Below, one piece after another: positions 5,139 through 30,703 of a DNA stretch of 64,000 nucleotides. Position 1 is the first letter of the stretch. Each line of letters begins with the position of its first letter. Source of the stretch: Bacillota bacterium (lineage in GTDB: Bacteria; Bacillota; Limnochordia; Limnochordales; DUMU01); contig DUMU01000007.1 of NCBI GenBank assembly GCA_012839805.1, positions 78,374 to 142,373 on the forward strand, in the 5' to 3' direction. The notes under the pieces were generated by a model. It made no database searches. It had not been told where the DNA came from and saw nothing but the letters and a program-made list of their open reading frames with translations. The position numbers were made by a program, and so were the translations under genes.

Positions 5139-5150
5139 ATCCGTAGCAGG

Positions 5151-5960: not shown

Positions 5961-5987
5961 GACTCCGGCGCCTCCTTTCGCCCAGTA

Positions 5988-7493: not shown

Positions 7494-7502
7494 GGGCGCA
7501 CC

Positions 7503-7537: not shown

Positions 7538-7742
7538 ACTAAGGCGGGGAAATAAACACGCGCTCGTGCGCACCACTTGACTCCTTTGCCTCCTGAGCTT
7601 ACCACGCAAGCGGTTCAGCTGCAAGAGATTAGTGGCGAAATTCACGAACTGGTTTCACCAGCTCCAGCCACCGGCCCTGGACCGGCAGCCGCCTCCCGTT
7701 AGCGACCTATAGCTAAAAATACCGGCGGCCGGCTGCGGGGCT

Positions 7743-10057: not shown

Positions 10058-10078
10058 CGTCTACGACAACCCAAGAAT

Positions 10079-10939: not shown

Positions 10940-11008
10940 CTCATCTCATCACGACACCTTACCTGACGAGCTTTGGGTCGGTAGCCCTTTTGCGTCCCTG
11001 CACGAACC

Positions 11009-11599
11009 TCAAGATGCCGGCACGAGCCCGCTGAACCCCATGAAGGTCAGGCTCATAATGGCGGCGATCAGAAGCGAAAGAGCCGGCCCTTGCAAGCTCA
11101 AGGGCACGTCGGCGAACTCCAGCTCTTCGCGCAAGCCGGCCATCAGCACAATGGCGAGAGTCCAGCCCACCGCGCTACCGACCGAGAACACCAGGGTCTC
11201 GAGCAGCCCGTAATCGCTCCCCGCCACCAGCAAGGCCACCCCGAGGATGGCGCAGTTGGTGGTGATGAGCGGCAGGTAGATTCCGAAAGCCTCGTAGAGC
11301 GAGGGACTGTAACGGCGGATCACCATTTCGAGGAATTGCACCAGCGTGGCGATGACCAGGATGAAGACGACGTACTGAAGGAACGGCAGGTGGAAGGGTA
11401 CGAGGATGTACCGCTGGATCGCCCAACTGACCGCACCGGATATGGTCATGACGAAGGTTACCGCCGCTCCCATTCCCAGGGCGGTCTCGAGGCGCTTGCT
11501 CACGCCGAGGAAGGCACAGATGCCCAGGAACCGGCTGAGGATGAAGTTATTGATCAGGGCCGAACCCACGAAGAGCAGAACCAGTGAACTGAAGCTCAT
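11009..11599 (-). CDS. rnfA: electron transport complex subunit RnfA
   Basis: 196-aa polytopic protein: MSFSSLVLLFVGSALINNFILSRFLGICAFLGVS...ITTNCAILG. Confidence 0.9.
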   Translation of the reverse strand: MSFSSLVLLFVGSALINNFILSRFLGICAFLGVSKRLETALGMGAAVTFVMTISGAVSWAIQRYILVPFHLPFLQYVVFILVIATLVQFLEMVIRRYSPSLYEAFGIYLPLITTNCAILGVALLVAGSDYGLLETLVFSVGSAVGWTLAIVLMAGLREELEFADVPLSLQGPALSLLIAAIMSLTFMGFSGLVPAS

Positions 11600-11615
11600 G
11601 ATGCCCCCTGCCCCC

Positions 11616-12359
11616 TTAGTTACTCAAACTGAGCCCCGCCGTTGAGGCCCCGGCTCCCGTGCCCGTCGTCGCAGCGGTTACGCCGGCCCCGGAGCCACGG
11701 GCGCGTTCGAGGCGACGGGCGGCCCGTTCTTTCGCAAGGCGCGACCCGAGGTTGAAGAGCCCGACGATCGCGCCCATGGTCAGGAAGGCGCCCGGCGGCT
11801 GCAGCATCACCCGCCAGGTGACGAAGCCGGGCGGCATTACCGGATGCCCCAGGAGCGAACCACTGCCTAGCAGCTCACGGACGATCCCGATCATGACCAG
11901 TGAGATGGTATAGCCGATGCCATACCCGAACCCATCGGCCAATGCCCGGTCGACGGGGACGTGGGAAGCCCACGCCTCGGCCCGCCCCAGGATGATGCAG
12001 TTGACTACGATGAGCGGAACGAAAAGCCCGAGGACCTTGTGCACCTGGGGCACGGTGGCGGCGAGTACCAGGTCGGCGATGGTGACGAAGGTGGCAATGA
12101 TGATGGTGTAGACCGGGATGCGGACTTCTCGCGGGACGATCTTGCGGATGGCGGAGACCATCACGTTGGTACCGACCAGCACGAAGATGACCGCCGCGCC
12201 CATGGCGAGGCCGTTCACTACCGCGGTGGTGACGGCCAGGGCAGGGCAGAAAGCGATCATCAGCCGGAAGGGCGAACTCTCCGTCCACACGCCTCGGAGG
12301 AAGTCCGTCCCCAGCGTCCGTAGCTTGCTCGGCTCACGACCGGTGCTCACAGCGCTCAT
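11616..12359 (-). CDS. rnfE: electron transport complex subunit RnfE
   Basis: NPFRLMIAFCPALAVTT... and VVNCIILGRAEA motifs. Has a ~40-aa Ala/Gly/Thr-rich C-terminal tail. Confidence 0.9.
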   Translation of the reverse strand: MSAVSTGREPSKLRTLGTDFLRGVWTESSPFRLMIAFCPALAVTTAVVNGLAMGAAVIFVLVGTNVMVSAIRKIVPREVRIPVYTIIIATFVTIADLVLAATVPQVHKVLGLFVPLIVVNCIILGRAEAWASHVPVDRALADGFGYGIGYTISLVMIGIVRELLGSGSLLGHPVMPPGFVTWRVMLQPPGAFLTMGAIVGLFNLGSRLAKERAARRLERARGSGAGVTAATTGTGAGASTAGLSLSN

Positions 12360-12483
12360 GCGTCAGTCGACACTCCTCTCAAACTCACCCGCTCGGCCCG
12401 GCCGGCGACGACCGCCATCGCCGACGGCCGGGCCGGGCTTACTCACCGGTTGACTCCGCGCGCACGCTCGCGTGCCCGCCCGG

Positions 12484-13581
12484 TCACTCTATCAAGCCGG
12501 ACGCGCGAGCCGCTGCGATCCCGTAGCGAACGGCTTCGGCCACCGCCTGAGAGGAGACGGTAGCCCCGCTGATCGTGTCGAGGTCCTCACCAACCTCCAG
12601 GCGGGCGTCGATGCTCTTCCCGGCGAACTGGCGCTGGAAAGCGGCATCAGTGGCGATCTTGTCTCCCACGTCCGGGGTTTCGCTCTGGTGGTAGACCCGG
12701 ACGTTGATCAGCGTCTTGTCGGCCGGATCGATCACCCCGAGCACCTCCACCGGCCCTTCCATCCCGGCGGCCGCGGCCCGGAAACCGATCGCTCCGGTCT
12801 CTCCGGTGGAAGAAATGCCCTGGAAGATCTCGGGGTCGGTCTTGGCTCCTTCCGCGGGGAAAGTGCCGATGGAGACGAACATGACCACGTCCACCCCCGC
12901 ATCGGGCGGTACCACGGCGAGCAGGGCTTCCGCCGGGTCGCCGGCCAGCTCGGGCAGGGCGTTAGTAGAACCCTCGCTCGTGGTGCTACCGCCCCCGGTG
13001 GCTGCCGGCACCGCTGCTGCCATCACCACGGGCTGGCCCATCCGTTGCATGGCGGCTTGGATACCCGTCCGGACGATATCGACCGCGGCCCGTGACGATA
13101 TGGTGGCGCCGGTGATGCCGTCGATGTCCTGGTTCAGCTGATAGGCATCGGTGAGGGACTTACCGGCAAACTGGTCGGTGAAGGACGGCTCTTGAATGCG
13201 AGAGCCGAGCCCCGGCGTCTCCGAAAGCTGGAGAACGCGGATCCCCACCAGCGACTTGCGGTCGGCACTCAGCCCGATCGCCATCTTGATCGGCCCGCCG
13301 AACCCGTCGCCGCTCGCCTTGAAGGCGTACCCGAGCACGCTTCCGTCCGCGGCGAGTACTCTGTAGACGGCATCGTCGGCCTCGGCCGAGCTGGGCGGTA
13401 CCTCTTCTTCGAAGCTGGCCGCCTCCGGGAACAGCCCCTTGAAGCCCAGCTCGAGGTCGGCTTTCTGCCGGTTGGCTTCGATGATGGGGTTGAGCCAGGT
13501 GTAAAAGCCGGCCAGAGTCCCGCCGGATAGGATGGAAACCAGAGCCAATACCAGGATCATGCGCCAGGTGGAACTACGCAC
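12484..13581 (-). CDS. rnfG: electron transport complex subunit RnfG with two tandem FMN-binding domains
   Basis: N-terminal anchor MILVLALVSILSGG. Two FMN_bind-like modules end in DIDGITGATISSRAAV and DLDTISGATVSSQAVA. 365 aa, against ~200 aa for a usual RnfG. Confidence 0.88.
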   Translation of the reverse strand: MRSSTWRMILVLALVSILSGGTLAGFYTWLNPIIEANRQKADLELGFKGLFPEAASFEEEVPPSSAEADDAVYRVLAADGSVLGYAFKASGDGFGGPIKMAIGLSADRKSLVGIRVLQLSETPGLGSRIQEPSFTDQFAGKSLTDAYQLNQDIDGITGATISSRAAVDIVRTGIQAAMQRMGQPVVMAAAVPAATGGGSTTSEGSTNALPELAGDPAEALLAVVPPDAGVDVVMFVSIGTFPAEGAKTDPEIFQGISSTGETGAIGFRAAAAGMEGPVEVLGVIDPADKTLINVRVYHQSETPDVGDKIATDAAFQRQFAGKSIDARLEVGEDLDTISGATVSSQAVAEAVRYGIAAARASGLIE

Positions 13582-14560
13582 GAACAGAAACCTCCTTTGG
13601 ACGCGGCAGCGTGAGGCGGTTGATCAGCGGTGTGCACATGTTGAAGAAAAGGATGGCAAAGGAGACGCCCTCCGGATAACTGCCCCAGAGCCGGATGACC
13701 ATGGTCATCACGCCGATGCCCAGGGCATATATCCACCGGCCCCATTTGGTAAGCGGGCTCGTCACCCAGTCGGTGGCCATGAAGAACGCTCCCAGCACCA
13801 ATCCACCGGAAAGAACGTGAAGTAGCGGATCTTGCCCGCCGGCCCAGGCGAAAAGGGCCGCCGAGCCCAGCACCCCCGCCGGGATTCGCCAGTCGATGAC
13901 CTGAAAAGCTATGAGTATGAGACCACCGAGCAAGAGAGCCGCTATAGCAGTCTCACCCAGTGAACCGCCATGATAGCCCGCGAGCAGTTCAAGGTAGGAG
14001 GGAACGCCTGCCCCCTTGGCCATCGCGGCCAGGGGGGTAGCGCCGGTTACCGCGTCCACCCCGCGTATCGGGCCGCCGAAATCCGTGAGGATCTGGGGAA
14101 AGGTGACCAGCAGGAAAACCCTCCCGACCAGCGCCGGGTTGAACAGGTTATGACCCAGGCCGCCGAACGCGTGCTTTCCCAGCAGGATGGCGATGGACGC
14201 TCCGATCACCACCGTCCAGAGGGGAACGGAGGGCGGCAGGGTGAGCGCGAGCAAAAGTCCCGTCACGGCCGCACTTCCATCGAGGAGATACCGCCCGGGC
14301 GAACGGCGCCGGGCCCAAACCGCCAGGGCCTCGACCGCCAGTGCGGTCAGGACCGATGCCCCGACCACCCGGAGCACCCGGAGTCCGAAGATGTAGGCCG
14401 CCACTCCCACTACGGGCAAGAGCGTGGCAAGCACCAAGTACATGGCCCGCTGGGCGGTAAGCGGTGAATGGAGGTGGGGAGAGCTAGAGAGAAGCAGAAG
14501 GCGTGTTCCAACGCCTCCGGTCTCCCGTCGCGGCTCAAGCGTTGGCGAAACCGTGTTCAT
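13574..14560 (-). CDS. rnfD: electron transport complex subunit RnfD
   Basis: 328-aa polytopic protein with the flavinylation motif VDAVTGATPL. ATGA overlap with the upstream gene and an 8-nt overlap with rnfG. Confidence 0.9.
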   Translation of the reverse strand: MNTVSPTLEPRRETGGVGTRLLLLSSSPHLHSPLTAQRAMYLVLATLLPVVGVAAYIFGLRVLRVVGASVLTALAVEALAVWARRRSPGRYLLDGSAAVTGLLLALTLPPSVPLWTVVIGASIAILLGKHAFGGLGHNLFNPALVGRVFLLVTFPQILTDFGGPIRGVDAVTGATPLAAMAKGAGVPSYLELLAGYHGGSLGETAIAALLLGGLILIAFQVIDWRIPAGVLGSAALFAWAGGQDPLLHVLSGGLVLGAFFMATDWVTSPLTKWGRWIYALGIGVMTMVIRLWGSYPEGVSFAILFFNMCTPLINRLTLPRPKEVSVRA

Positions 14561-15972
14561 CGGTTACCTAACCTCACTTCTGCGTGACAGCTGGCTACTG
14601 CTACCTGTTGCTCCCGTGGCCGTTTACCGGTCGGGGACGCCTTCCCGTTGGAGGATGAGGCGATGCCGGTTTGACGGCCGTTCTCTTCGGAAGCTTTCTC
14701 CGGCTTACGGCGGGAGAGCTCATGCTGGGCGAGCCTGATCAGCTGAACCAGGGGGAGCCGCGCCGGGCATGCATAGGCGCACAGGCCGCAGGCATAACAC
14801 TTTTCCGCTCCCTGCCGGGCCGCCTCCTCCCAGCGATGGAGACGGGCGAGGCGGCCGAGGACCGCGGGAGCAAGTCCCTCGGGACATATGGCAACGCACC
14901 GGCCACAATGGAGGCAGACGCCCACGCCTGGGGAGGCTTCCAGAAAGGCGTCACCCAGCGCGAGATACCCCAGATCGCCCAGGCTGATGTAAGCATCTTC
15001 CAGGGGGAGAGCTTCACCCGCCAGGTAGCCGCCCCGAACCAGGAGACGAAGACGTGCGTAATCGACCCCCGCGGCTTCGAGGAGGGCGCTAACCGGAGCC
15101 CCGATGGGCACCCGGTAAGTACCGGGCCGGGCGACCGCGTCCCCCCCTATGGAGACGAGGACATCGACGGGAGGCAGAAACGTCTGCAAGCTCCTGCCCA
15201 CGGCCGCCGCGATCTCGACGCCGACAATGGCCGCATTGCTGAACCGGGCGGCCAGCATCTCCGGACGCCCCGCCGGGTAACCGGCCGGAACTAGCAGCAC
15301 TTCGGCGGGGAGGAGGTCGCGCCGTAAAGCGGCAAGTTCAGTGGCGGAAAGGGTCCCTTCAGCTATCGCCAGCCAGCCCTGGCGGTTGCCTGGCGCTCCC
15401 GGGCCGGATAGGATGGCGGTTACTCCGGCGGCGACGTCGGCCCTCCGTTCGTGAAGCAGGGCCCGGCGACCGAAGACTCCCTCGTCGGGGTCGCACCCGT
15501 TGAAAACGATAATGCCCGCGGTGGTGAGGGGCTCAGGGTCTACGCCGGCAAGGCGGCAGGCGTGGCGGAGGCGATCCCCGACGGGGGTTGTGCCTGCCCG
15601 GCGGTTGGTGCCTTGCTTCTCTGCCCCGGCTTCCGCCACCGGCTGGATGGCAACGAACGGAACCAACCCGGACCCACCCGTGTCCGGGGCCGGCCGGAAG
15701 CCGGCGTCCACCACTTTGCCGGCCACCGGGCTGAAAAGGCAACCGTCTTCAGGTGCATCCTGCGGGCCGGCCAGTACTGTACCGGGCCTCACGAGATCAC
15801 CCTTTTTCACTACCGGCACGAGAGCCCGCCCGGTAAGGTCTTGCCCGCGAAAGACCAGAATTGAAGGGGAGGTCAGGACCTGGCTGGGTTGCCAGCCTCC
15901 CTCCCCTCGGGTAAACAGGGACCGCCCCGGTACACGTAGGAGCCGGCCCCGTCCCCGCCTGCGCCACGGCAT
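14557..15972 (-). CDS. RnfC-like subunit lacking the NADH/FMN-binding signatures
   Basis: Has VVKKGDLVRPGTVLAG...FSPVAGKVV, CLHCGRCVAICP and CYACGLCAYACP. The glycine-rich and ECEPY positions read RLAGVDPEPL...FNGCDPDEGVFG. ATG at 15972 is preceded by gggaggg with an 8-nt spacer. The ORF extends to 16059. Confidence 0.8.
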   Translation of the reverse strand: MPWRRRGRGRLLRVPGRSLFTRGEGGWQPSQVLTSPSILVFRGQDLTGRALVPVVKKGDLVRPGTVLAGPQDAPEDGCLFSPVAGKVVDAGFRPAPDTGGSGLVPFVAIQPVAEAGAEKQGTNRRAGTTPVGDRLRHACRLAGVDPEPLTTAGIIVFNGCDPDEGVFGRRALLHERRADVAAGVTAILSGPGAPGNRQGWLAIAEGTLSATELAALRRDLLPAEVLLVPAGYPAGRPEMLAARFSNAAIVGVEIAAAVGRSLQTFLPPVDVLVSIGGDAVARPGTYRVPIGAPVSALLEAAGVDYARLRLLVRGGYLAGEALPLEDAYISLGDLGYLALGDAFLEASPGVGVCLHCGRCVAICPEGLAPAVLGRLARLHRWEEAARQGAEKCYACGLCAYACPARLPLVQLIRLAQHELSRRKPEKASEENGRQTGIASSSNGKASPTGKRPREQQVAVASCHAEVRLGNR

Positions 15973-16068
15973 GATCCAATCCCTCCCGTCGACAATGCAA
16001 TGCATGCCCCAGCGGTGATTTGGGGGCAGGTGCGGACGGCCCCGCCTGCCCCCAAGCAAGCGAACGGT

Positions 16069-16803
16069 TCAGCGCTCGGCGGCCTTCAGGGCGTTGGCTA
16101 CCGCTTCCTTGTATTTGTTGCCGCTGTTGGTCGCGCCGGTAACCACGTCCACTTGCTCGATCTCAGCCACCGAGCTCTTGCCGACGAAACGCTTTTGCAT
16201 TTCGTCCCGGGCGGTGACGGCGACTTTGTACGAGTAGTTCTTCCAATCCTTGAACTTACCGTCGGTGACCTCGTCCAGCCGCACCGCCTTGATCTTGTCG
16301 TTTTCCACCGTCACCCAGGCCACGGCGTAGCCATGGCTGTCCGCCTTGCTCTTGCCAAAGAAAGTACCTTCGAAGTACTTGGCTTTGGATTCAGGAGTCA
16401 CGCGCGCCTTGGCCAGCGCCCGCTCTACCGCCTGAATCCATTTGCGGCTGCTGCTGGTCGCCTTGGCGTAGACATCGACCTGGGGGCCGTTGTTGGCCAC
16501 GAAATCTTTTTCGAGCTTCTCCTTGGCCTCTTTGGCTGCCGGCCAAGGATACTTATCGTAGTCCTTGGGTTCCCCGAACTGGGTTATTTCGCTCAGGGTG
16601 ACGCGTACGATCTTGTCATCCTTGATGACTAGTACGGCCATGCCATAGCCATGGTCGTCTGCGTCTGAGATACCGGTGGTAACCCCATCCTTGTAGATCT
16701 TCCCGGCCGTCCGGCCCGTGAGCGGCAGTGCTACTGCAGTTGCTACCGCGAGGATCCCGACGAGTAAGACGACGCGGCTCCAACCTTTGAGAACGCGATC
16801 CAT
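16069..16803 (-). CDS. extracytoplasmic protein with two FMN-binding (FMN_bind, PF04205-like) domains
   Basis: ATG at 16803 after aggaggg (8-nt spacer). Signal or anchor WSRVVLLVGILAVATAVAL. Two repeats start YKDGVTTG.../FEGTFFGK... and end VDVYAKATSSS and VDVVTGATNSG. Confidence 0.8.
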   Translation of the reverse strand: MDRVLKGWSRVVLLVGILAVATAVALPLTGRTAGKIYKDGVTTGISDADDHGYGMAVLVIKDDKIVRVTLSEITQFGEPKDYDKYPWPAAKEAKEKLEKDFVANNGPQVDVYAKATSSSRKWIQAVERALAKARVTPESKAKYFEGTFFGKSKADSHGYAVAWVTVENDKIKAVRLDEVTDGKFKDWKNYSYKVAVTARDEMQKRFVGKSSVAEIEQVDVVTGATNSGNKYKEAVANALKAAER

Positions 16804-16955
16804 TTCGCAAGCCCTCCTGACTGGTTGAGATTGCGGGTTCACCACGGTAGCCCGGATCACCGGGCTTTCCCAACATTAGTACCTACGTGTTGTCCGTCCC
16901 GAATCCTCCCCCCTTGCTCAACTGGGCCGGCCGCGGGAGCCGGCGGAGCCGAAGG

Positions 16956-17186: not shown

Positions 17187-20100
17187 ATGCAGATGCGGCC
17201 CGCTTTCCGTCGCAAGTTGCCGCTGGCCTGCATTCTGGCGGCTGGGTTGCTTCTTTCGTGCACTGCGCCTCTCTTGTCCGCTGCCGGACCGGCGACGCGG
17301 GCTCCATCAGTATCGCCACAGCCCGGGCTTGACGGGGGGGCGATCGTTCCTCCGCCCTCAGGATCGCCGCGGCAAGAGTTCCTGCCAGGTGAGGTCCTGG
17401 TCAAGCCGAAGATCAAGATCCATCCTGGGGTGGCCATGTCCCAGGCGGTGGCCAGCGCCGAGGTCGGAGTGAAGACTTCCGTCGCCGAGTTGGTGGGGAT
17501 CGAGCCACAGGCGGTCAAGGTCAAGCCCATCTCGATGCCGGATGGAAGTCCCCTGCTGGTGGTAAGCATCCCCGAGGGATCGGAGGAGGAAGTGGCCAGG
17601 GCCCTGAGCGCCCGGCCTGACGTGGAGTACGCCGAGCCGAACTACCTTTGGTACCCGGACGATGCCGTCTTCCCGACGGATCCACGTTTCAGCTTCAACT
17701 ACGACTTGCACAACACCGGCCAGGTTTTCGTGCCGCCCCTCGGCTTGAGCGGAACGCCGGACGCGGACATCGACATGCCCGAGGCCTGGGGCATCCATCA
17801 GGCGAGCGGCAGCATCGTCGTGGCCGTCATCGACACCGGCATCTTTATCGACCATCCCGAGCTCGCGGGGCAGATTTGGACGAACCCGGGCGAAATCCCG
17901 GATAACGGCGTGGACGACGATGGGAACGGATACGTCGACGACGTCCACGGCTGGGACTTCTTCAATAACGATAACACCGTCTTCGATTTGGCCGATGGCG
18001 ATGAACATGGCACACATGTTGCCGGGACGATCGGCGCGCTGATGAATAACGGCATCGGTTCGGCCGGTATCAACGGCAAGATCCAGATCATGCCGTTGAA
18101 GTTCATCGGGCCGAACGGCGGATCGACTGAGGATGCAGTCCGGGCCATCGAATACGCTGCGTCTTTTGGCGTGAAAATCTCCAATAATAGCTGGGGCGGT
18201 GGGGGCTACAGCGACGCACTTCGCGATGCCATAGCTAGCTCCGGCATGCTTTTCGTAGCCGCCGCGGGAAACGATGGTTTGGATAACGACGTCGCTCCGC
18301 ACTACCCGTCCTCTTACGACCTGCCCAATGTGCTGGCCGTGGCCTCCAGCGACTGGAACGACGAGCTCTCCGGCTTTTCCAACTACGGGGCGACCAGTGT
18401 CGACCTGGCCGCGCCCGGGGACTTCATCTTCAGCACCTGGGTTCGGAACGTCAACGGAACGGCACAGCCTGCCTTCGCCTGGGCTTCGGGCACGTCAATG
18501 GCTACACCGCACGTAGCCGGGGTGGCTGCTCTCCTGCTCGACAAGTACCCGGACCTGCCGCTCTATCCGGGAGCGCCGGGAGCGCAGCCGGACTCACCGA
18601 CATTGAAGGACGTACTCATGTACTCCGGGGATTACAAACCGGCCTATCAAGGGCTCATGGTTGCCCCGGTCCGGTTGAACGCGGAGCGTGCTTTGGGCCA
18701 GGTCATCGCTCCTATCATTCAGAATCTCACCGTTAACGGCAGGCCTTTTGGCAACCGCACAACTCCGGGCCAGGCGGTGGCGTTCACTGTAACGGCCGAA
18801 ACCCCGTTCAGCACGGTGGCTTCGATCACCTGGGATTTCGGCGACGGGCAGGAGGCAGCCGGGGCGACCGTTACTCACGTCTATGGTCGGCCCGGAGTAT
18901 ATGAGGTCCGGGTAACGGTAACGGACGACGACGGCGATGCATCAACCGCCTTGGCCACGGTCGAGGTGGTAGAGGACAACAGAACGGTTGTCCTGGTGGA
19001 CGACGACGGCAGTGCTGCCAGCGAGATTCCTTTGATTAACGCTCTAGAAGCAGCAGGGCTTCCCTATGTGGTAGCCGCCCCGCAGGCAATTCTGCGGCTC
19101 AACCCCCAGGACCACCCGAACCCGATCTTCTGGGAGACGGGAACGGAGTTATCTGCACTTAACGTATGGGAACAGGGCTTCATCGCCGCGTTCCTCGATG
19201 CGGGTGGGCGTCTCTTCCTGAGCGGTCAGGATGTCTTGGAGGGACTGGCGGGAAGCGACTTCCTGACCCGGTATCTCCACGTTCAGGCCTTCCGGAGTGA
19301 TACGGGGGCAGACGTGATCGAAGGTATCCCCGGCGATCCGGTCACGGGCGGTATCGGTCGCATTCGCCTCCAATTCCCGGAGGGGATCACGGACCGGGCC
19401 GATGACCTTACTCCCACCGAGGATGCCGACCCGATCTTTACGACCTCCCTCAACACCAGCCCGGCGTTGCGCTATATCTCGTCGGATCAGCAAGGACCGC
19501 GCCTGGTCCTCTCTACCGTTTATTTCGGAGCAATCCCGCTCACTAACCCGGATCCGTCCAATGCCCGCGGGTTCGTGCTCAGCATCTACCATTTCCTGAC
19601 CGGGCAGGATGTCAATCTGCCACCGGTCGTCCTCAAGACCGGCGGCTCGTTCCAGATCGGCGACGCTCCTCTCACTGTTCAGGTCAACGCGACGGTAGAG
19701 GACCCCGTTCCCCAACCACTGGCGGTGGCGTACGCCTACTGGGACTTCGGCGATGGTTCACCGGTGGTAGGGGCGAAACCGCAAGAGAACTTCGCGGCCA
19801 GCCATACGTACCAGGCTCCCGGCTTTTACCGGGCGACGCTGCGGGTAGTTGATGACCAGGGTGAGGACACCATCGCCTATCGCAACTTCCTCGTACTCCC
19901 GCCAGGCACGAAGATGATCGCGGTGGACGACGGCGACAATCCCGGGACGTTCGGCCTGATCACCGGGGTTCTCGATCAGCTGGGGGTCCGGTATGTAGCC
20001 GTAACCCCGGACCTGCTGGTGGACGAGACCGGCATTCTCGACGGGGCCTGGCAGTACCCGCTCTTGTGGACCACCGGCGAGATCGGCTATACCGACCACT

Positions 20101-22259
20101 CGGAAGTGGCGGCCCTCGAAGAGTTCATGGACCAGGGCGGGCATCTCATCCTCTCCGGACAAGATGAGCTCTTCAACATCTGGGAAGCCGACCCGCAACT
20201 GATGGAGTTCGCTACGGACTATCTCAAGGTTGCCGACGTGGCCCATGACGTAGGGGCTCCGCACATCCTTGGGCAGCCGGGCGACCCGATTAGCGACGGC
20301 GTGGAGATCTACCCGCAGTTCCCCTTCGCCGACTGGAGCGACATCATCTTACCGGCTCAAGAAGCGTCACCGCTCTTCTGGCGGGACATGGCGGACTACG
20401 GCTACCCTGACTACTACCTCCCGAATGCTTTACGCTACGATGGTAGTTACCACTTGCTCTTCCTTGCCTTCCCGCTTGAAGCAGTACCGTACCAGTATCG
20501 GTTGTCGGCGTCACCCACGTCAGCTGCCGGTCCGGGAGGGGCGGTGGCCGTGCCTCTGGCTGGTGAAAGCAGCGCCAGTACGGGCACAGCGCAGGTGCTC
20601 AAGAGCCAGCGAAAAGCCGGTGCTGCCAAAGGCATGCAGCTTGAGCAACTGAAGAGTCTTGCCTGGCGGCCAACCGGCGAAGTGGGCCCCTTCGTACCCG
20701 GTACCTTGCCCTTGCTCCTTGGCCGAGCCTTGAGTGCCTCCGACGCCGGTATTGCGCCGCCGCTTGCCCCCCTGGTGCTTGCTGTGAGCGCGGACCAGGG
20801 CCCGGTCGAGCCGGGCGTGGCCGTGACTTTGCAGGCGCTGGCCGAAGACGTAGACGGAACGATCGTGGAGGCCTGGGTGGAGACCGGCGATGGAGCGCGG
20901 ATCGATGTACTGGCGGGCGATTCACGGGTGATAGCGGACGTGACGCACACCTATAGCGAGCCCGGCGTCTACGATGTCACTTACTACTTTAAGGACGACG
21001 CGGGTAACGAAGCGGTCGGCAGCAGCCGGGTGACCGTAGCCTACCTGCCGCAGGCTAGCCTTGAACCGGCGGCGGTGGAGGTGAGCCTCTCCCCCGCGAT
21101 CCAGGCGGAACGGTCACTTACTCTCCACAACTCCGACGAGCAAGCCGAGCTGCACTTTACTGCGGAAGTAGCAGAAGCTCCCGCATGGCTCACCGTCGAG
21201 CCCGCCGCGGGAACTGTGTCCCCGGCGAGTTCGGCCAGCCTCCGCTTGCTGTTCAATACCGACGGCCTGGAAGCCGGTCAGGACTATACCGCAACGGTGG
21301 TCGTCCAGACCGACGATCCCGACCGGCCGCGGTTCGACGTGCTGGTTACGCTCCACATCGTCACTCCGGCGGCTGCGGTCAACCCGGGTGAGCTCAGCTT
21401 CATGCTAAACCCGGACGAGCAGGCGACCCGGGCGATCACGGTCTCGAACGAGGCGTCGGGGGAGGGAGCCGTTCTGGCCTTCACCGCCAGCGTAGACGGC
21501 GAGACGGGATGGCTCAGTGTCAGCCCGGCCCAGGGAGAAGTCGCTCCGGAGGGTACGGCGGAACTAACCGTTACGGTCGATACCACGGCGCTGGTCGCCG
21601 GTGACTACCAGGGGAAGATCGTGATCGCAACTAACGACCCGGAGAAGCCGGAAATCCAGATACCGGTCACCCTGCAGGTGCGACCCATCAACCTTCAGGT
21701 ACTGAGCCCGCAAGCAGGCGACGTCTGGACGGGAGTGAAGGAGATCCGCTGGCAGGCGGAGGACCCTGAAAGCCAGCAAGAGACGGAAGCCCTCAAGATC
21801 ACGCTGGAGTACAGCCCCGATGGAGGCACGACCTGGAAGAGTATCGCCACCGATGAAGCCAACGATGGGCGTTACAGTTGGGATACCCGTTCGGTGGAGA
21901 AAGGCGGCAACCGCTTCGTCGTGCGGGTGACAGCGACTGACCCCGAGGGGCACGCGGCGACGGCCACGAGCGGGGTATTTACCGTGGCGGTAGTTCGGAA
22001 CATGGTCACCCACGGTCCGAACCCGGCCAGGGAGTACGTCACCTTCTACTACAACCTGAGCGAACCGGCGAAGCTCTACGTCTATGACATCAGCGGTCAC
22101 CTGGTGCTGGCTCAGGATCTCGCGCCTGCCGCCAACCACTATCGGTGGGACCTGACGGACGCAGCGGGTCGACCACTGGCCAGCGGGCTGTACCTTTACA
22201 CGGTAGTGACCGAATCGGGCCAGGCCTCGCCGGTCGAACGCCTGGTAATCAAGCGGTGA
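17187..22259 (+). CDS. secreted multidomain subtilisin-like (S8) peptidase with PKD repeats and a T9SS-type/FlgD-Ig-like C-terminal domain
   Basis: Signal peptide and an I9-like propeptide. Catalytic triad contexts VAVIDTGI, HGTHVAGTIG, SGTSMATPHVAG. Three PKD-like WDFGDG.../THTY...Y repeats, two ~100-aa Ig-like repeats, and a C-terminus GPNPAREYVTFYYNL...LYVYDISGHLV...WDLTDAAGRPLASGLYLYTV. The second ATG (17193) has better SD spacing. Confidence 0.88.
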   Translation: MQMRPAFRRKLPLACILAAGLLLSCTAPLLSAAGPATRAPSVSPQPGLDGGAIVPPPSGSPRQEFLPGEVLVKPKIKIHPGVAMSQAVASAEVGVKTSVAELVGIEPQAVKVKPISMPDGSPLLVVSIPEGSEEEVARALSARPDVEYAEPNYLWYPDDAVFPTDPRFSFNYDLHNTGQVFVPPLGLSGTPDADIDMPEAWGIHQASGSIVVAVIDTGIFIDHPELAGQIWTNPGEIPDNGVDDDGNGYVDDVHGWDFFNNDNTVFDLADGDEHGTHVAGTIGALMNNGIGSAGINGKIQIMPLKFIGPNGGSTEDAVRAIEYAASFGVKISNNSWGGGGYSDALRDAIASSGMLFVAAAGNDGLDNDVAPHYPSSYDLPNVLAVASSDWNDELSGFSNYGATSVDLAAPGDFIFSTWVRNVNGTAQPAFAWASGTSMATPHVAGVAALLLDKYPDLPLYPGAPGAQPDSPTLKDVLMYSGDYKPAYQGLMVAPVRLNAERALGQVIAPIIQNLTVNGRPFGNRTTPGQAVAFTVTAETPFSTVASITWDFGDGQEAAGATVTHVYGRPGVYEVRVTVTDDDGDASTALATVEVVEDNRTVVLVDDDGSAASEIPLINALEAAGLPYVVAAPQAILRLNPQDHPNPIFWETGTELSALNVWEQGFIAAFLDAGGRLFLSGQDVLEGLAGSDFLTRYLHVQAFRSDTGADVIEGIPGDPVTGGIGRIRLQFPEGITDRADDLTPTEDADPIFTTSLNTSPALRYISSDQQGPRLVLSTVYFGAIPLTNPDPSNARGFVLSIYHFLTGQDVNLPPVVLKTGGSFQIGDAPLTVQVNATVEDPVPQPLAVAYAYWDFGDGSPVVGAKPQENFAASHTYQAPGFYRATLRVVDDQGEDTIAYRNFLVLPPGTKMIAVDDGDNPGTFGLITGVLDQLGVRYVAVTPDLLVDETGILDGAWQYPLLWTTGEIGYTDHSEVAALEEFMDQGGHLILSGQDELFNIWEADPQLMEFATDYLKVADVAHDVGAPHILGQPGDPISDGVEIYPQFPFADWSDIILPAQEASPLFWRDMADYGYPDYYLPNALRYDGSYHLLFLAFPLEAVPYQYRLSASPTSAAGPGGAVAVPLAGESSASTGTAQVLKSQRKAGAAKGMQLEQLKSLAWRPTGEVGPFVPGTLPLLLGRALSASDAGIAPPLAPLVLAVSADQGPVEPGVAVTLQALAEDVDGTIVEAWVETGDGARIDVLAGDSRVIADVTHTYSEPGVYDVTYYFKDDAGNEAVGSSRVTVAYLPQASLEPAAVEVSLSPAIQAERSLTLHNSDEQAELHFTAEVAEAPAWLTVEPAAGTVSPASSASLRLLFNTDGLEAGQDYTATVVVQTDDPDRPRFDVLVTLHIVTPAAAVNPGELSFMLNPDEQATRAITVSNEASGEGAVLAFTASVDGETGWLSVSPAQGEVAPEGTAELTVTVDTTALVAGDYQGKIVIATNDPEKPEIQIPVTLQVRPINLQVLSPQAGDVWTGVKEIRWQAEDPESQQETEALKITLEYSPDGGTTWKSIATDEANDGRYSWDTRSVEKGGNRFVVRVTATDPEGHAATATSGVFTVAVVRNMVTHGPNPAREYVTFYYNLSEPAKLYVYDISGHLVLAQDLAPAANHYRWDLTDAAGRPLASGLYLYTVVTESGQASPVERLVIKR

Positions 22260-22274
22260 GAGGAGCGGTGGAGC

Positions 22275-23174
22275 ATGAAGAGAGTTCAGTTGGCACGCAT
22301 TGTGTCCGGGGTGGTTGGTGGCGTCCTCCTCATCGGTCTGCTGCTCCTCGTGTCGGCAAGCATGAGCGCGCTGGCCGCGGCCGGTCCGCCGGACTATAGC
22401 CGTACCGGGGCAATGCTGGACATCGGCATGAGCGCGAGGGCAATGGCCCTGGGTGGGGCGTACGCGGCAGTGGTCGAGGACGCTACGGCGCTCTACTACA
22501 ACCCGGCCGGACTCCTGCGGGTGCAGGGGATACAGGCAAACTCACTCTATCTGGATCAACACGGAGCGGCCAGTTACATGGCTCTGGGAATAGCGTCCCG
22601 GGGCCTGGGAATTGGGCTGCTCCACCTGGGCTCGGCCGGCAACCCCTACCGGGACGAATTCGGTAACGATCTCGGCGACAACTTCGACCTGGGCGAAACC
22701 GCATGGATGCTGGGAGGAGCCCGGTCCGTTGGTGAACTGAAGCTCGGCGTTACCGGCAAGTACTACCGTCAAGTCATTGCCGACGAGGTAAGCTCTGGAT
22801 GGACGGTGGATGCAGGGGTGCTGCTGGAAAAGGGAAAGCTTACCCTGGCGCTGGTAGGGCGGAACCTGGCCGGGGAACTCTCGGGTTCACAGGGCCGGGA
22901 TCCGTTTGACGCCAGCTATGTGCTGGGTGTGGGCTACCGCTCCGGACCGCTGCTCTTGCTGGCCGACCTCGGCTTGGGTCAGGTGGTGCGGACGGGCGTG
23001 GAGTACCAGTTGGCCGGGGTTGCCCTGCGGGGCGGTCTCTGGAGTGAACAGGGAAATCAAGCGCTGACGGCAGGGCTGGGGACAAAGGTCGGGAACCTTA
23101 CGATCGACTACGCTCTACAGGTTCCCTCCCATCTCCCGGTTGAGCACCGTTTGGCGGTAGGAGTGCAGTTCTGA
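22275..23174 (+). CDS. PorV/PorQ-like outer-membrane beta-barrel protein (family assignment tentative)
   Basis: Signal peptide, then the N-terminal signature GMSARAMALGGAYAAVVEDATALYYNPAGL. Alternating beta-strand pattern and a C-terminal aromatic residue (...LAVGVQF). Starts 15 nt after the protease stop, with a gaggag SD. Confidence 0.65.
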   Translation: MKRVQLARIVSGVVGGVLLIGLLLLVSASMSALAAAGPPDYSRTGAMLDIGMSARAMALGGAYAAVVEDATALYYNPAGLLRVQGIQANSLYLDQHGAASYMALGIASRGLGIGLLHLGSAGNPYRDEFGNDLGDNFDLGETAWMLGGARSVGELKLGVTGKYYRQVIADEVSSGWTVDAGVLLEKGKLTLALVGRNLAGELSGSQGRDPFDASYVLGVGYRSGPLLLLADLGLGQVVRTGVEYQLAGVALRGGLWSEQGNQALTAGLGTKVGNLTIDYALQVPSHLPVEHRLAVGVQF

Positions 23175-23234: not shown

Positions 23235-23487
23235 CGCGCGCATATCCATATGCGACACGTGAGTGCACATGGAGCGGGGAGCGGTAGCCAGGAGGCCGGG
23301 GGCCGGGGTGTTTCGCGGCGCTTCCGGGGGGTGGGGGAGCAGAATAGGAGCGTGAAGCGGATAAGACGGCAGGAGACCGGTGCCGGGAAGAAGAATGAAG
23401 AGCGAGCGCGGGCCGCCCGCTGTACACCCCGGGACACCGGCCGCCCGCGCCAGTCCGCAAACGCGTCAATCGAGGTGTCAAGCCAGT

Positions 23488-25869
<2,382 letters not shown>

Positions 25870-26035: not shown

Positions 26036-26386
26036 TGGTGGAGGTGAGCGGAGTTGCACCGCTGTCCACGAGAGGGACCACACCCGCATCTACGAGCGTA
26101 GCTCTCGCTTTCTTCTCGTCCCGGCCGGCCCTCGAGAGCCAGGTCCGTCCGGCACCAGCCTGTATGAGTCCTCCGACCTACCAGGCACTCGGCCGGAGCC
26201 ATCCCGCTTCATGACACCTGGTTCCGGTTAGCGGGCGTCACCGGGCAGGCGTAGCAGCTGCTTACGCAGCGACTGCTAGAGCAGTGTTGTTGTTGGCACT
26301 TATTGGGTTTCCCCGGATTAACGAGTCAGGGAAGCTCGGCTCGCCGCGAATGCCACCCCATCCCGTGTCGAACCTGATTCACCCCC
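26036..26386 (-). ncRNA. ssrA: tmRNA (SsrA), tag peptide (A)ANNNTALAVAA
   Basis: 5' GGGGGTGAATCAGGTTCGACACGGG. Tag ORF GCC AAC AAC AAC ACT GCT CTA GCA GTC GCT GCG TAA at 26297-26262. 3' tRNA-like end GGTGCAACTCCGCTCACCTCCACCA with a G3:U pair in the acceptor stem. Confidence 0.92.
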
Positions 26387-27312: not shown

Positions 27313-28284
27313 ATGATCGAAATCAGGGGGTTGACGAAGCGGTTCGGTCAGCTGACCGCCGTGGATAACCTCAACCTGCGGGTGGAAAAAGGAGAGATCT
27401 TTGGTTTCCTGGGGCCTAACGGTGCTGGAAAGACCACTACTATCATGATGATCCTGGGTTTGATCCGGCCAACGTCAGGATCGGTTCGCATCTTCGGGAA
27501 AGAGCTCTCTGAAGATTACTTCGGGATCAAGAAGCGTCTGGGAGTGCTTTCTGAATACCAGTACATGTACGATGAGATGACGGCACGGGAATACCTGACG
27601 TTCTTTGCCCGGCTTTACCAGGTAGAACAAGGAGAGAAACGGGTCCAGGAGGTCCTGGAAAGGGTGCGGCTCCGGGACCGCCAGGATGAGCTGGTGGGCG
27701 GATACTCTAAAGGAATGAAACAGAAACTCGGGTTAGCCCGGGTGCTCCTGCACGACCCGGAGATTCTGATCCTCGACGAGCCGACCAGCTCCCTCGACCC
27801 TTACGGGGTGCGGGAGGTGCGGGATATCTTGCTCGAGGAGCACGAGCGAGGCCGGACCCTCCTGATATCTTCGCACCTGCTATCCGAGATCGAGCGGATC
27901 TCCACGCGGGTCGGGATCATGAACAAAGGCCGGCTGCTGGCCGAGAACACCATGGACGAGCTGCGCCGGCGGCTGACCCAAGAGGTAACCATAACCGTGG
28001 ACCTGGAGAGTATCCCCGACGGCGTAGTGGACAAGCTCCGGGAGCTGCCGAACGTGGTGTCGGTGGAGACGGTCCCGGTCAGCCGGGACGGTGCGGGTGC
28101 CGGGATGAGCCTGGTCATCAAGACCAAGCCGGGGGCCGAACGGCGGGCCGAAATCGCCCGGGTGCTCAGTAGCGCGGGAGCTATCATCCTCGGCATGCGC
28201 ACCAGCGAAATGAACCTGGAAGAGGTCTTCATCACCATCACGGAAAACAACATCTCACTCCTGGCTGAGGAGGGCGTGGCATGA
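27313..28284 (+). CDS. ABC transporter ATP-binding protein (ABC-2 exporter type)
   Basis: Walker [10 protein letters not shown], signature [12 protein letters not shown], Walker [13 protein letters not shown], plus a C-terminal accessory domain. Confidence 0.9.
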
Positions 28285-29111
28285 GTGCTACCTCGTACCG
28301 GCTGCACGCCACCCGCTTGATCGCGGGGCGTGAACTGCGTTCAACCGTCTTCGGCATCGGCATCTACATAGTCATGACGATCGCGTTCGTTTTGGCGTCC
28401 TACGGCGTCAACAGCTTCTTGTACAACATCTCTCAAAACGGCGCTCTGGCCATGCCATCGCCGTTGCTTCTGCCCCTATTTGTGGCCGTGTTTCTGAGCT
28501 CGCTCTATCTCGGGCTGCTCTCGTCGTTGACCATCTCCCGGGAACGAGATCAAGGCACGCTGGAAGTACTTTTCTACGGGCCGGTGGACTCATTCAGCTA
28601 TGTGATGGGCAAGTTCATCGAACAGATGCTCGTCTTCGGCGTTTTCATCCTGTTCAACCTGGTCTTCTTTGCCTTCGTTGCGCTGATTACTAACTTCGGC
28701 TTCAGCTTGGACATAATCTGGCTTCTCCTGATCTCCTTCTTCGTGGCTGCCTCAGTGGTCGCTTTCGGGATTTTCCTCTCATCGATCACCAAGAGCAGCC
28801 GGGCGTCGGTGTTCCTCTTCATCCTTTTCATGGCTTTCTTCATCGGCTTCTTCTGGGGGTACTCGACGCTGATGGGGATTCCCGACAAGGAGCTTTCGGC
28901 CGGCATGATCTACTTGCGGCAGGCCCTGGACTACCTGCGGCGGGTGATCGAGTGGGTCTCACCGCTCGAGTATCTCAACCGTGGGGCGCTGGCGGTCGCT
29001 TCCAGCAGCGTGAGCGGTTTCTTCGCCGCGGTGGGCGAATCCCTGGCCTATGGTGTGGTGCTGCTTGCCGCCTCGATCTTCTTCTTCAATCGTAAGGGGG
29101 TCAAGAAGTGA
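28281..29111 (+). CDS. ABC-2 family permease (NosY/GldF-like)
   Basis: Six predicted TM segments with ISRERDQGTLEVLFYGPV after TM2. 4-nt overlap with the ATPase gene. Confidence 0.8.
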   Translation: MSATSYRLHATRLIAGRELRSTVFGIGIYIVMTIAFVLASYGVNSFLYNISQNGALAMPSPLLLPLFVAVFLSSLYLGLLSSLTISRERDQGTLEVLFYGPVDSFSYVMGKFIEQMLVFGVFILFNLVFFAFVALITNFGFSLDIIWLLLISFFVAASVVAFGIFLSSITKSSRASVFLFILFMAFFIGFFWGYSTLMGIPDKELSAGMIYLRQALDYLRRVIEWVSPLEYLNRGALAVASSSVSGFFAAVGESLAYGVVLLAASIFFFNRKGVKK

Positions 29112-30703
29112 TGGTGATGAGGACGGAAGGTAAGGTGATGGTTCGCCGGCTGCTCCTGGGATTGCTGCTCGCAGGCACGGTGGCAGGAGCGCAGCTGGTG
29201 GTAGCCCCGGGCCAGAGCGGGGCCGCGACCGGGGCGGCCGATCAAGCCACCGTGGCCGGCGATACCCAGTCGCCCGCCGAGGGCACCCAGTCCTCAAGCA
29301 ACGGAACCCAGCCCGCGGGCAATGGTAACGCCAGCAGCGGCAGCGAAAGCAACAAGAGTGCGAGCGGCAGTACTCTCGCCCCCTGGGAGAAGGACATGCC
29401 CCAGCCCACCGAGGAGGAACTCAAAGGAGAGGGTGTGCCGGAGAAGGAAAAGCAGCTGGTCTACTCCCTCAGCCCCTGGACCGCTACGGAAAAGGAGCCG
29501 TACGGCGGCACGTTCGTTCCGAAAAGCGAGAGTACCTTCTTCCTATTGGCGGACCATCCCAGTCTGGTGAACCCGGTTCGTACCGAGGTGTACTACTGGC
29601 CGATCACCAAGGAATACATGGCGGACTGGTTCGGCTTCCGGGAGGACGTGCCGGGGAAGCTGGAGATCTTGCAGAACGGCAAGGTCATAAAGACCCTGGA
29701 GAAAGTGAAGTACACCTACAAGTACGGTGGCGAGGACTGGTCGCAGGCGCCTACGCTCATCGTCGGTGAAGAAGCGGTCAAGGAATACCAGGCGTACAAC
29801 GACGCGATGGATGCATACTACAAAGCCATGACCAAGTACTATGAGGACTACGACGCCTGGAACAAGTACATGGAGAAGCTCATTAAGCGAGTACAGCAGA
29901 CCGGCAAGCCCGCCAAACCGGAAGAGATCCCGGAGGCGCCCAAGCAGCCGGAGCCACCCAAGATCTACGTGACTGAACCAACCGAAGCCTTCCTCGTGAA
30001 TTTGCCGGCCGGCGAGTACGAGATCCGGACGGTAAAGGATGGGAAGGTCGTTCCCGATAGCGAGAAGAAGCTGGTAGTAGTCGCGCCCCGCCGGCAGGGG
30101 ATCGGTTACGTAGTCGTCCCCGAAAGCAAGTGGACCCGACCGTTCACCAGCGATGACCGAAGCCAACTTCTGTACACCTGGGGTTCGCGCACACTGTACA
30201 TCGGTGTGTTCGACTCTTTGGAGTACAACCGGTATGCCTACACTCGCTTGACGCAGGTCCACGTTCCTTTGGCAGGAAAGGGAACGGAAACGCAATGGCA
30301 ATGGGTGCAGACGAAGGAACGGACCGACGTGCGCCTGCAGCTGGTCAAAAACGGCGACGTGATCCAGGAGATTGTGCGGCAGCCCTTCTACGTCAAGCAG
30401 ACACCCGGTTACGCCCTGGGCTACCAGATCGTGCCTTTTGATGAAAAAGACCCGGAGATGCAGGGTCAAAAGCCTACCCTGTGGGGATTCCGGGTCGTGG
30501 TACCCGAAGGCGAGGGCTATCAAATCCGGGTAGTGGACGCCAAGGGTAATGTGCTGCCCGAAAGCGTCAGGGACATCCGTTCCGTAGCCCAGCAAGGACC
30601 ATGGGCGTTGTACGCAGTATCGGCCTTCCCGCTGGTGGTCGGCGGGCTGATCTATGGCTTGCGCCGGACACGAGTCCCGCGGCGCAAGCCTCTGCCGGTA
30701 TGA
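29108..30703 (+). CDS. uncharacterised exported protein with C-terminal TM anchor, Lys/Glu/Tyr-rich
   Basis: Signal peptide LLLGLLLAGTVAGA, Ser/Gly/Asn/Gln-rich linker, Tyr-rich helical segment YQAYNDAMDAYYKAMTKYYEDYDAWNKYMEKL. Two CarboxypepD_reg-like strands (LPAGEYEIRTVKDGKVV, PEGEGYQIRVVDAKGNVL). C-terminal helix ALYAVSAFPLVVGGLIYGL followed by RRTRVPRRK. Overlaps the permease stop. ATG at 29138 is an alternative start. Confidence 0.7.
   Translation: MMVMRTEGKVMVRRLLLGLLLAGTVAGAQLVVAPGQSGAATGAADQATVAGDTQSPAEGTQSSSNGTQPAGNGNASSGSESNKSASGSTLAPWEKDMPQPTEEELKGEGVPEKEKQLVYSLSPWTATEKEPYGGTFVPKSESTFFLLADHPSLVNPVRTEVYYWPITKEYMADWFGFREDVPGKLEILQNGKVIKTLEKVKYTYKYGGEDWSQAPTLIVGEEAVKEYQAYNDAMDAYYKAMTKYYEDYDAWNKYMEKLIKRVQQTGKPAKPEEIPEAPKQPEPPKIYVTEPTEAFLVNLPAGEYEIRTVKDGKVVPDSEKKLVVVAPRRQGIGYVVVPESKWTRPFTSDDRSQLLYTWGSRTLYIGVFDSLEYNRYAYTRLTQVHVPLAGKGTETQWQWVQTKERTDVRLQLVKNGDVIQEIVRQPFYVKQTPGYALGYQIVPFDEKDPEMQGQKPTLWGFRVVVPEGEGYQIRVVDAKGNVLPESVRDIRSVAQQGPWALYAVSAFPLVVGGLIYGLRRTRVPRRKPLPV

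Follow-up and report, generated by a model that had tools for sequence, protein, structure and literature searches.

In Bacteroidota's type IX secretion system (T9SS), type A C-terminal sorting domains (CTDs), which carry a conserved Lys near the C-terminus, bind PorV inside SprA and exit the translocon PorV-bound (PMC10994853). The CTD-like domain of PorZ is uncleaved (PMC8545088), and genetic linkage is frequent between type B cargoes and the cognate PorP/SprF-like shuttles that set the surface location of these cargoes (PMC12618676). T9SS has been described as restricted to Bacteroidetes (PMC4793230) or to the Fibrobacteres-Chlorobi-Bacteroidetes (FCB) superphylum (PMC12421860). Here we describe two adjacent genes in a 64,000-nt stretch of a Bacillota bacterium contig (DUMU01000007.1, positions 78,374 to 142,373; called the window below), which encode a giant S8 protease ending in a T9SS-type CTD and a PorV/PorQ-family outer-membrane beta-barrel. 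Our reading is that the two genes make up an operon through which a diderm Bacillota of the Limnochordia lineage displays the protease on its cell surface in a CTD-dependent way, and we give this reading a probability of roughly 60%.

Among the described systems, the PorU-PorV and PorZ-PorQ pairs of Porphyromonas gingivalis likewise place a type A-like CTD beta-sandwich on a surface protein, and the docking of this domain on the PorV or PorQ barrel, which is known there, is what we propose here. The profile of barrel-adjacent CTDs comes closest to the PorU and PorZ C-terminal domains, and the barrel profile is homologous to PorV. The passenger is different, being a subtilase here instead of a C25 sortase or an anionic lipopolysaccharide (A-LPS) carrier, and no A-LPS or sortase step is evident. 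In addition, the barrel has about 300 amino acids (aa) while PorV and PorQ have 340-400 aa, it fails their equivalog cutoffs, the genes are adjacent in the window, and the host belongs to Bacillota, not Bacteroidota.

The type B CTD-PorP/SprF pairs of Flavobacterium johnsoniae (PMC12618676, PMC9143113) also link one cargo gene to one dedicated barrel, which recognises the CTD and anchors the cargo on the surface. The genetic logic is the same in the window, where docking would be the counterpart, but the CTD is of the type A/FlgD-Ig class (TIGR04183 matches) and the barrel belongs to PorV/PorQ, not to PorP/SprF. With the canonical type A system (SprA/Sov and PorV; PMC10994853) the locus shares a Sec signal peptide, a C-terminal type A CTD and a PorV homologue, and its relatives encode a giant protein with a local SprA/Sov match beside the PorV-like gene. 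In contrast to the canonical system, no GldKLMN/PorKLMN motor or ring and no PorU is seen here, the SprA-like protein is not a demonstrable member of its family, and the host lies outside the Bacteroidota or FCB range given in the literature.

The protease gene and its C-terminal sorting domain

The protease gene (17187..22259, + strand) encodes a secreted multidomain S8 subtilase of 1690 aa with a C-terminal sorting domain, according to the open reading frame (ORF) list, the translation and the Pfam and NCBIfam scans. The ribosome-binding site GGAGA precedes its ATG, and an alternative start at 17193 gives 1688 aa, the product length called in public assemblies. The barrel gene (22275..23174, + strand) encodes a 299-aa PorV/PorQ-family outer-membrane beta-barrel, as identified from the ORF list, NF033709, AlphaFold, Foldseek and profile searches. 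Reading of the sequence between them (22260..22274, + strand) gave a 15-nt spacer, TGA-gaGGAGcggtggagc-ATG, with the Shine-Dalgarno site GAGGAG directly past the stop codon, and a consensus scan of this spacer found no promoter-like or terminator-like site. Because the ribosome-binding site comes right past the stop codon and no such site lies between the genes, the two are likely co-transcribed. The original prediction, which was made from the letters alone, had proposed this co-transcription and had given the same ORF sizes (1690 and 299 aa) and gap (15 nt), which the ORF list reproduces.

The CTD covers aa 1611-1690 (22017..22259, + strand), contains GPNPA, SGLYLY and K1689, and was assigned to the T9SS type A / FlgD-Ig class by TIGR04183. 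This NCBIfam model (T9SS type A sorting domain) scores 32.1 bits with the whole protein and 37.2 bits with the isolated tail, both over its cutoff of 23, so the T9SS-type tail noticed in the original prediction is borne out. The same prediction had named PF13860 (FlgD_ig); this Pfam family does match the tail with 26.0 bits, as Por_Secre_tail (PF18962) does with 18.7 bits, and both stay under the cutoff of 27. As in type A cargoes, the domain stands at the extreme C-terminus of a protein (1611-1690 of 1690) that has an N-terminal signal peptide, and the end of the protease, …RLVIKR, has the near-C-terminal Lys (K1689). The closest orthologue ends in …RLTIVR, which indicates that the Lys is not invariant in the clade. 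When a profile of the CTD tails adjacent to barrels was compared with solved structures, PorU (6za2_A) was matched with E 1.2e-11 and PorZ (5m11_A) with E 3.2e-10, followed by F. johnsoniae substrate CTDs solved inside the translocon at about 1e-4; FlgD was also among the matches.

The barrel protein

The barrel protein begins with a Sec-type signal peptide (aa 1-34, …SALA/AAG) and carries the motif GMSARAMALGGAYAAVVEDATALYYNPAGL. A conserved N-terminal hatch motif (aa 46-82) is followed by the barrel at about aa 87-299, which ends in a C-terminal Phe (…HRLAVGVQF). The N-terminal hatch, the signal peptide and the C-terminal aromatic residue are those of FadL-type barrels, and the family consensus of the N-terminal motif is GxGARxxGMGGAFxAxxDDxxAxxYNPAGL, with the invariant residues taken from the family alignment (A1).

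In the NCBIfam scan, NF033709 (PorV/PorQ_fam) ranks first with E 1.1e-19 and 71.2 bits, so that its top rank stands while its cutoff of 90 is missed; relatives of the barrel pass this cutoff with 102.9 (L088), 128.2 (L002) and 173.2 bits (L012). The PorVQ2, PorQ and PorV models come next, all of them far under their equivalog cutoffs. Judged by these scores, the window barrel is an orthologue of neither PorV nor PorQ and is a short, divergent barrel of the PorV/PorQ family. Nothing significant was found by the Pfam scan, in which TraF_2 reached a non-significant E of 0.057 (13.1 bits) and the FadL family (PF03349) gave no match at E ≤ 1. No PorP/SprF model was among the NCBIfam matches at E ≤ 1, and the Pfam and NCBIfam scans were without a POTRA or Omp85 signature.

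When 1.84 billion representative proteins were searched exhaustively with HMMER, the family proved to be large: 5525 representatives match at E ≤ 1e-3, of which 698 reach E ≤ 1e-10. The large-database profile search with alignment A1 returned mostly an Aerophobetes-type branch of about 292 aa, and the high-GC close relatives were not among its returns. With a profile of 31 family members, PorV of F. johnsoniae (6h3i_F) was matched with E 1.6e-25 (93 bits), and the next match was TodX with E 0.03 over 32 residues. The AlphaFold model of the barrel is confident (mean predicted local distance difference test, pLDDT, 92.5; predicted template-modelling score, pTM, 0.83) and shows 15-16 strand elements past an N-terminal segment of short helices. 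Foldseek against PDB put PorV chains from SprA translocon complexes in the first two ranks (8gl6_F, TM score 0.69; 6h3i_F, 0.64), and TbuX, TodX and FadL followed in the 3rd to 8th.

The resemblance to PorV/PorQ that had been read from the two ends of the protein is thus supported by the family profile, the top rank of NF033709 and the nearest folds. FadL, TodX and TbuX channels share the beta-barrel fold and the N-terminal hatch segment with the window barrel, but the profile similarity to them is marginal (TodX E 0.03), and the genomic association here is with CTD proteins instead of catabolic operons. A FadL- or TraF-like identity, the outcome that would have spoken for another family, was ruled out by the Pfam scan and by the difference between PorV (1.6e-25) and TodX (0.03).

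Conservation of the pairing between CTD and barrel

A gene ending in the CTD adjoins the barrel gene at every close-relative context examined. The orthologous S8 protease adjoins the barrel in two of these loci (L007 and L181), an M6 peptidase with the same CTD comes after the barrel in another (L088), and a CTD protein stands before it in L090. In L002, a 1307-aa non-protease with a FlgD_ig tail ends 13 nt before the barrel, and in L012, which is from Calditrichia, the partner is a BNR/sortilin protein with a CTD. The barrel of Limnochorda pilosa (AP014924.1; L179:7384-13391) is followed by three short ORFs ending in CTDs, two of which contain RCC1 repeats; these RCC1-bearing ORFs look like fragments of one gene. 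A second, divergent barrel of the family lies just upstream in L. pilosa on the opposite strand.

To these contexts we added 80 further metagenome loci, obtained by a pattern scan of contigs with the YYNPAGL motif from alignment A4 and ranging in GC content from 27 to 68%. Using gene proxies, we found a CTD at the end of 40 of the 52 same-strand genes directly upstream of the barrel, while only 6 of 163 other genes ended in one. Among 52 tails adjacent to a barrel, 40 match TIGR04183 at E ≤ 1e-3, 33 the C-terminal part of the PorU model and 31 that of the PorZ model. The passengers in front of the barrel-adjacent CTDs are PKD-rich, S8, M6, RCC1, BNR/sortilin and Ig-repeat proteins, non-enzymes and others; since they are so diverse, the link is between the barrel and the CTD and not between the barrel and proteolysis or any enzyme. 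The pair is not unique to the genome of the window but widespread in metagenomes, and its conservation in relatives, which the original prediction had proposed to check, is seen both in these counts and at the same chromosomal site of a Limnochordaceae metagenome-assembled genome (MAG).

The family has a second branch, whose barrels share 25-29% identity with that of the window and lie directly behind outer-membrane proteins of about 1120 aa. These partners end in …GRQIRLGLEVNL and have a TonB-dependent-receptor/SusC-type N-terminal domain, and this conserved pairing is distinct from that with the CTD. It was seen in L118, L120, L123, L126, L128, L129, L138, L145, L151, L152 and L159, for example in L128, where the partner at 2433-5816 precedes the barrel at 5842-6843.

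Domain structure of the protease

The protease starts with a hydrophobic N-terminal Sec signal peptide, MQMRPAFRRKLPLACILAAGLLLSCTAPLLSAAG (aa 1-32; 17187..17282, + strand), which was read from the translation and may be of the lipoprotein type (LLSC). It is followed by a fervidolysin-type prodomain (aa 59-152; PF22148, E 1.3e-5) and the S8 catalytic domain (aa 209-459; PF00082, E 1.8e-52), which together span 17361..18563 (+ strand). The protein belongs to the S8 subtilases, with 178.9 bits for PF00082 (Peptidase_S8) against a cutoff of 21.8, and the motif positions show that its catalytic D216, H274 and S437 are intact, as is the oxyanion residue N362.

By Pfam and self-BLAST, the next region (18729..21038, + strand) contains PKD1 (aa 515-594), the first copy of an internal module (aa 598-786), PKD2 (about aa 815-897), the second copy of the module (aa 906-1103), a low-complexity linker and PKD3 (about aa 1195-1284). 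The two module copies (VVLVDDDG… LFLSGQD…; window 18978-19544 and 19902-20495, + strand), found by self-comparison, share 33% identity (E 2e-17). The duplication interleaved with PKD repeats had already been noticed in the original prediction, where the module was put at about 150 aa; its length is about 190 aa. Orthologous S8 proteases contain 1-3 copies, and a local HMM found one copy in an M6 peptidase of the clade. The family signal of the module is a weak similarity to DUF4350/DUF4159, Pfam families with a glutamine-amidotransferase-like fold. Between the PKD region and the CTD (21054..21986, + strand), Pfam and self-BLAST gave two BACON_2/ASH-type Ig domains (aa 1290-1388 and 1395-1495), in which region self-BLAST found 40% identity (E 4.5e-18), and one Kre9/KNH-like Ig domain (aa 1507-1600). 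These Ig domains together probably form a stalk.

Host lineage and outer membrane

The sequences of the barrel, ClpX, LonB and RNase PH are identical to those of an NCBI MAG labelled "Firmicutes/Bacillota bacterium", in which the barrel is HHV54225.1 (207,976-bp contig), deposited as "hypothetical protein". The same sequence was recovered in 11 contigs from several samples, and several of these contigs derive from biogas fermenters. The window contains the order tig-clpP-clpX-lonB-lon, in which spore_lonB (spore-type LonB) scores over its cutoff, and also a CwlD-like amidase and a SCIFF-type maturase with a score about equal to its cutoff, a gene content that fits Bacillota. Together with the MAG label, the LonB score agrees with the Bacillota-like, sporulation-gene-bearing genome of the original prediction.

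A relative of the barrel at 47% identity clusters with MBE3582551.1 ("Limnochordaceae bacterium"), and another at 41% identity is WP_144440312.1, "PorV/PorQ family protein [Limnochorda pilosa]". Synteny between the window and the Limnochordaceae MAG locus (L181) extends over more than 20 kb, with the pair at the same chromosomal site. The MAG locus runs from the Rnf operon through an FMN-binding protein, the S8 protease (1581 aa), the barrel, smpB, an ABC transporter and an amidase (Cu_amine_oxidN1, AMIN and Amidase_3 domains) to murD and rph, and the position of the pair between the Rnf operon and smpB is also conserved in a related contig. On the names of the closest barrel relatives and this synteny, the organism of the window is placed as a relative of Limnochordia.

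Outer-membrane gene markers are present in 46 of 46 Limnochordia genomes analysed by Taib et al., and two new Limnochordia isolates have a diderm envelope by electron microscopy (PMC11456536). A monoderm host, which the original prediction had named as fatal to its idea, is ruled out by this diderm envelope of cultured Limnochordia together with the Limnochordaceae synteny. The checks suggested in the original prediction all spoke for its interpretation.

A giant outer-membrane protein beside the pair in related loci

In five loci of the clade (L090, L095, L098, L102 and L180), a giant outer-membrane protein of 1435-1628 aa comes after the barrel. Four of them have the order S8-CTD protease, barrel, giant protein, which directly follows the barrel in L095, L098 and L102 and is separated from it by about 1.7 kb in L180. 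L090 has, next after its barrel, a giant protein of 1621 aa (end …VRAEF) and then another S8 protease; homologues of this giant protein include those of Geochorda subterranea (59% identity) and of a Limnochordaceae MAG. In Geochorda, the giant protein precedes an S8/PKD protease of 3477 aa. The family as a whole (1435-1729 aa, …VRAEF-type end; L090:1757-6622, L095:7077-11384, L102:3430-7866, L180:10001-14887 and, from Geochorda subterranea CP141614.1, L091:10001-14761) is thus found after the PorV-like barrel or beside giant S8 proteases, in Limnochordia and related metagenome contigs. The window contains no homologue of it.

For all six homologues tested, the top NCBIfam family was TIGR04189 (T9SS translocon Sov/SprA), always in the model region 585-653, which makes the similarity specific though short, and a Pfam scan of the giant protein gave nothing. 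The giant protein is possibly a divergent SprA-like translocon, which we regard as a lead and not as a finding. A third component acting as translocon likely exists outside the window, and the term "minimal" used for the system in the original prediction is probably too strong in view of the five loci in which a protein matching SprA/Sov follows the pair.

Proposed function and alternative explanations

In the proposed mechanism, the protease and the barrel would both cross the inner membrane via Sec, after which the barrel would insert into the outer membrane. The type A-class C-terminal beta-sandwich would guide the protease across the outer membrane through a conduit that is probably a divergent SprA-like giant barrel, presumably encoded elsewhere in the genome. 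The retained CTD would then stay docked, non-covalently, on the cognate PorV/PorQ-family barrel encoded downstream, and this docking would hold the protease at the cell surface with the array of PKD, Ig and module domains as a stalk. The domain identities, the homology of the barrel to PorV, the conserved and enriched pairing and the lineage are shown by the data above; the binding of the CTD to the barrel, retention at the surface in place of release, the identity of the translocon and the energising of transport are what we infer.

Several results weigh against this reading. There is no SprA-like, GldK/L/M/N (PorK/L/M/N) or PorU gene among the 43 ORFs scanned in the 64-kb window, just as the original prediction had reported no further T9SS component there. 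The match of the giant protein to TIGR04189 is local, covering 55-70 residues with E 4e-5 to 3e-10, and its score of 21-38 bits compares with a cutoff of 200; phmmer and the family profile of the giant protein found no SprA match in PDB, and the AlphaFold model of a 1028-aa homologue (five sequences) was unusable, with pLDDT 43.6. The window barrel stays under the NF033709 cutoff and reaches 17.5 bits with the PorV equivalog NF033710 (cutoff 250) and 46.8 bits with the PorQ equivalog NF033711 (cutoff 220). It is about 100 aa shorter than PorV, and the long CTD-binding loops may be absent from it. The adjacency of CTD and barrel gives an odds ratio of 87 (Fisher p 2.5e-26), a value that is indicative only, as the loci are phylogenetically non-independent and p overstates the support.

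A different explanation is that a complete canonical T9SS (SprA, GldKLMN/PorKLMN, PorU, PorZ) is encoded elsewhere in the genome, perhaps derived from an FCB-group bacterium, and that the barrel is one of several PorV paralogues which stands beside a cargo gene by chance. Both the CTD and the barrel are genuine homologues of T9SS components, and our view of the genome spans 64 kb. The pair is also common among metagenomic lineages whose GC ranges from 27 to 68%, and many of these lineages may possess a complete T9SS. We nevertheless consider it unlikely, since no motor, ring or sortase gene lies in the window or, by precomputed Pfam labels only, within the ±10 kb flanks in L. pilosa, Geochorda, Limnochordaceae and other MAGs, the sole SprA-like candidate has 1435-1729 aa and a local match to a model of 2319 positions, and published surveys place T9SS in Bacteroidetes or FCB only (PMC4793230, PMC12421860). 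The possibility that the barrel is a FadL/TodX-type channel taking up hydrophobic or peptide products of the protease, with the CTD as a mere Ig-like adhesion or FlgD-like module, seems less probable still. It would fit the FadL-superfamily fold, the Foldseek ranks of TbuX, TodX and FadL and the presence of FlgD among the matches of the CTD profile; the TonB-dependent-receptor-like neighbours of the second barrel branch also suggest nutrient uptake, which may apply to that branch. But the family profile finds PorV with an E value more than 20 orders of magnitude better than that of TodX, the adjacency tracks the CTD across unrelated passengers including non-enzymes, and the CTD, which passes the type A model, stands at the extreme C-terminus in every case.

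The one-to-one genetic pairing also resembles the logic of TpsA/TpsB, and with no translocon in the window one may ask if the barrel itself exports its neighbour in a two-partner or autotransporter-like manner, the CTD plugging a 14-strand barrel without a separate translocon. This is improbable for a small hatch-bearing barrel (14 strands by analogy with PorV/FadL), which has no known capacity for a multidomain protein of 1690 aa and lacks a POTRA or Omp85 signature in the scans above, while relatives put a giant outer-membrane protein beside the pair. We give hardly any credit to the idea that the pair is without function, either as a decaying remnant or on a contig mis-binned from a non-Bacillota diderm. 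The source is indeed a MAG, and GC is slightly lower at 16-20 kb (0.61 against about 0.65). However, a single contig carries the pair, flanked by housekeeping genes of the kind typical for Bacillota and within the synteny of more than 20 kb with the Limnochordaceae MAG. Neither ORF is broken, the catalytic triad and the signal peptides are present, and the codon-position GC pattern is like that of the neighbours. The identical sequence was also obtained by independent assembly as 11 contigs from several samples.

Going beyond the operon for CTD-dependent surface display, a type A-like CTD as the signal, a PorV/PorQ-like barrel for each cargo and a short translocon resembling SprA might form a core that predates the Bacteroidota/FCB machinery, or that was transplanted into Terrabacteria and simplified. 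We put this forward as a tentative idea and consider it rather doubtful.

Relation to database annotation and significance

Part of this is already in the databases. In PGAP annotation, "PorV/PorQ family protein" is the name given to the L. pilosa orthologue and to many proteins of Aerophobetes; WP_144440312.1 and the proteins from Aerophobetes MAGs belong to the same NF033709 family as the window barrel, and what exists for them is a database name only. TIGR04183 would label the window protease, so the database-level finding is partly known. Our literature search found no paper linking Limnochorda with type IX secretion and none on the pairing of these barrels with CTD cargo in Bacillota. What is new is an operon that joins a T9SS-type CTD to a PorV-type barrel in a diderm Bacillota; a short translocon is a candidate further part, neither a motor nor a sortase is visible, and the putative function is surface display.

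For specialists, the surprise lies in the lineage and in the one-cargo-one-barrel arrangement for type A-like CTDs. Limnochordia are deep-branching, cultivable diderm Bacillota, so cultured hosts exist, and the locus is a simple natural setting in which to ask what parts of T9SS suffice for export and anchoring by way of the CTD. It is also relevant to how T9SS originated and to the ancestry of the Bacillota outer membrane. The host organisms are abundant in biogas reactors and compost, where surface-displayed proteases are probably important for protein degradation. Moreover, the adjacency rule (40 of 52 against 6 of 163) could help to annotate cargo proteins across thousands of genomes from metagenomes.

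Neighbouring genes in the window

The only gene of the window that is extra to the Limnochordaceae locus (L181:10915-11628) is an H+-translocating pyrophosphatase (23380-25869), which lies between the barrel and tmRNA/smpB. Its best relatives, with 53-67% identity, are scattered over many phyla; this scatter and its absence from the syntenic locus suggest an insertion or transfer. Its ORF, read from GTG 23380, has a long low-complexity N-terminal extension. The tmRNA (26036-26386) has the tag peptide ANNNTALAVAA.

Further downstream lie an ABC ATPase and an ABC-2 permease (27313-30703), for which a GldA-like model is second-best (ATPase) and a GldF-like model is best (permease), both far under their cutoffs. 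They are followed by a 531-aa protein without a family, and the trio is kept next to smpB in the Limnochordaceae MAG. An 884-aa amidase (30962-33616) combines Cu_amine_oxidN1, which is typical of Bacillota, with AMIN and Amidase_3, a combination also kept in the Limnochordaceae MAG. AMIN is a periplasmic domain of diderm AmiC/PilQ, and the domain combination fits a diderm Bacillota envelope.

Upstream of the protease, the Rnf operon (5988-16860, - strand) has a canonical (5988-7493) and a divergent (14557-16059) RnfC-like gene and also contains ApbE, a fused Hpre_diP_synt_I/NusG_II protein and a PplA-like FMN-binding lipoprotein (16069-16860); this gene set is reminiscent of flavin-based extracellular electron transfer. 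A radical SAM/SPASM maturase (62127-63587, - strand) scores 424.7 bits against the SCIFF maturase cutoff of 425. A mechanically called GH18 ORF (1240-2976) overlaps tRNA-Arg(ACG) (1451-1527), so its true start must be downstream of this tRNA. Other tRNA genes form a Pro, Gly, Arg, His cluster (37424-37777) and a Lys/Leu pair (41166-41375).

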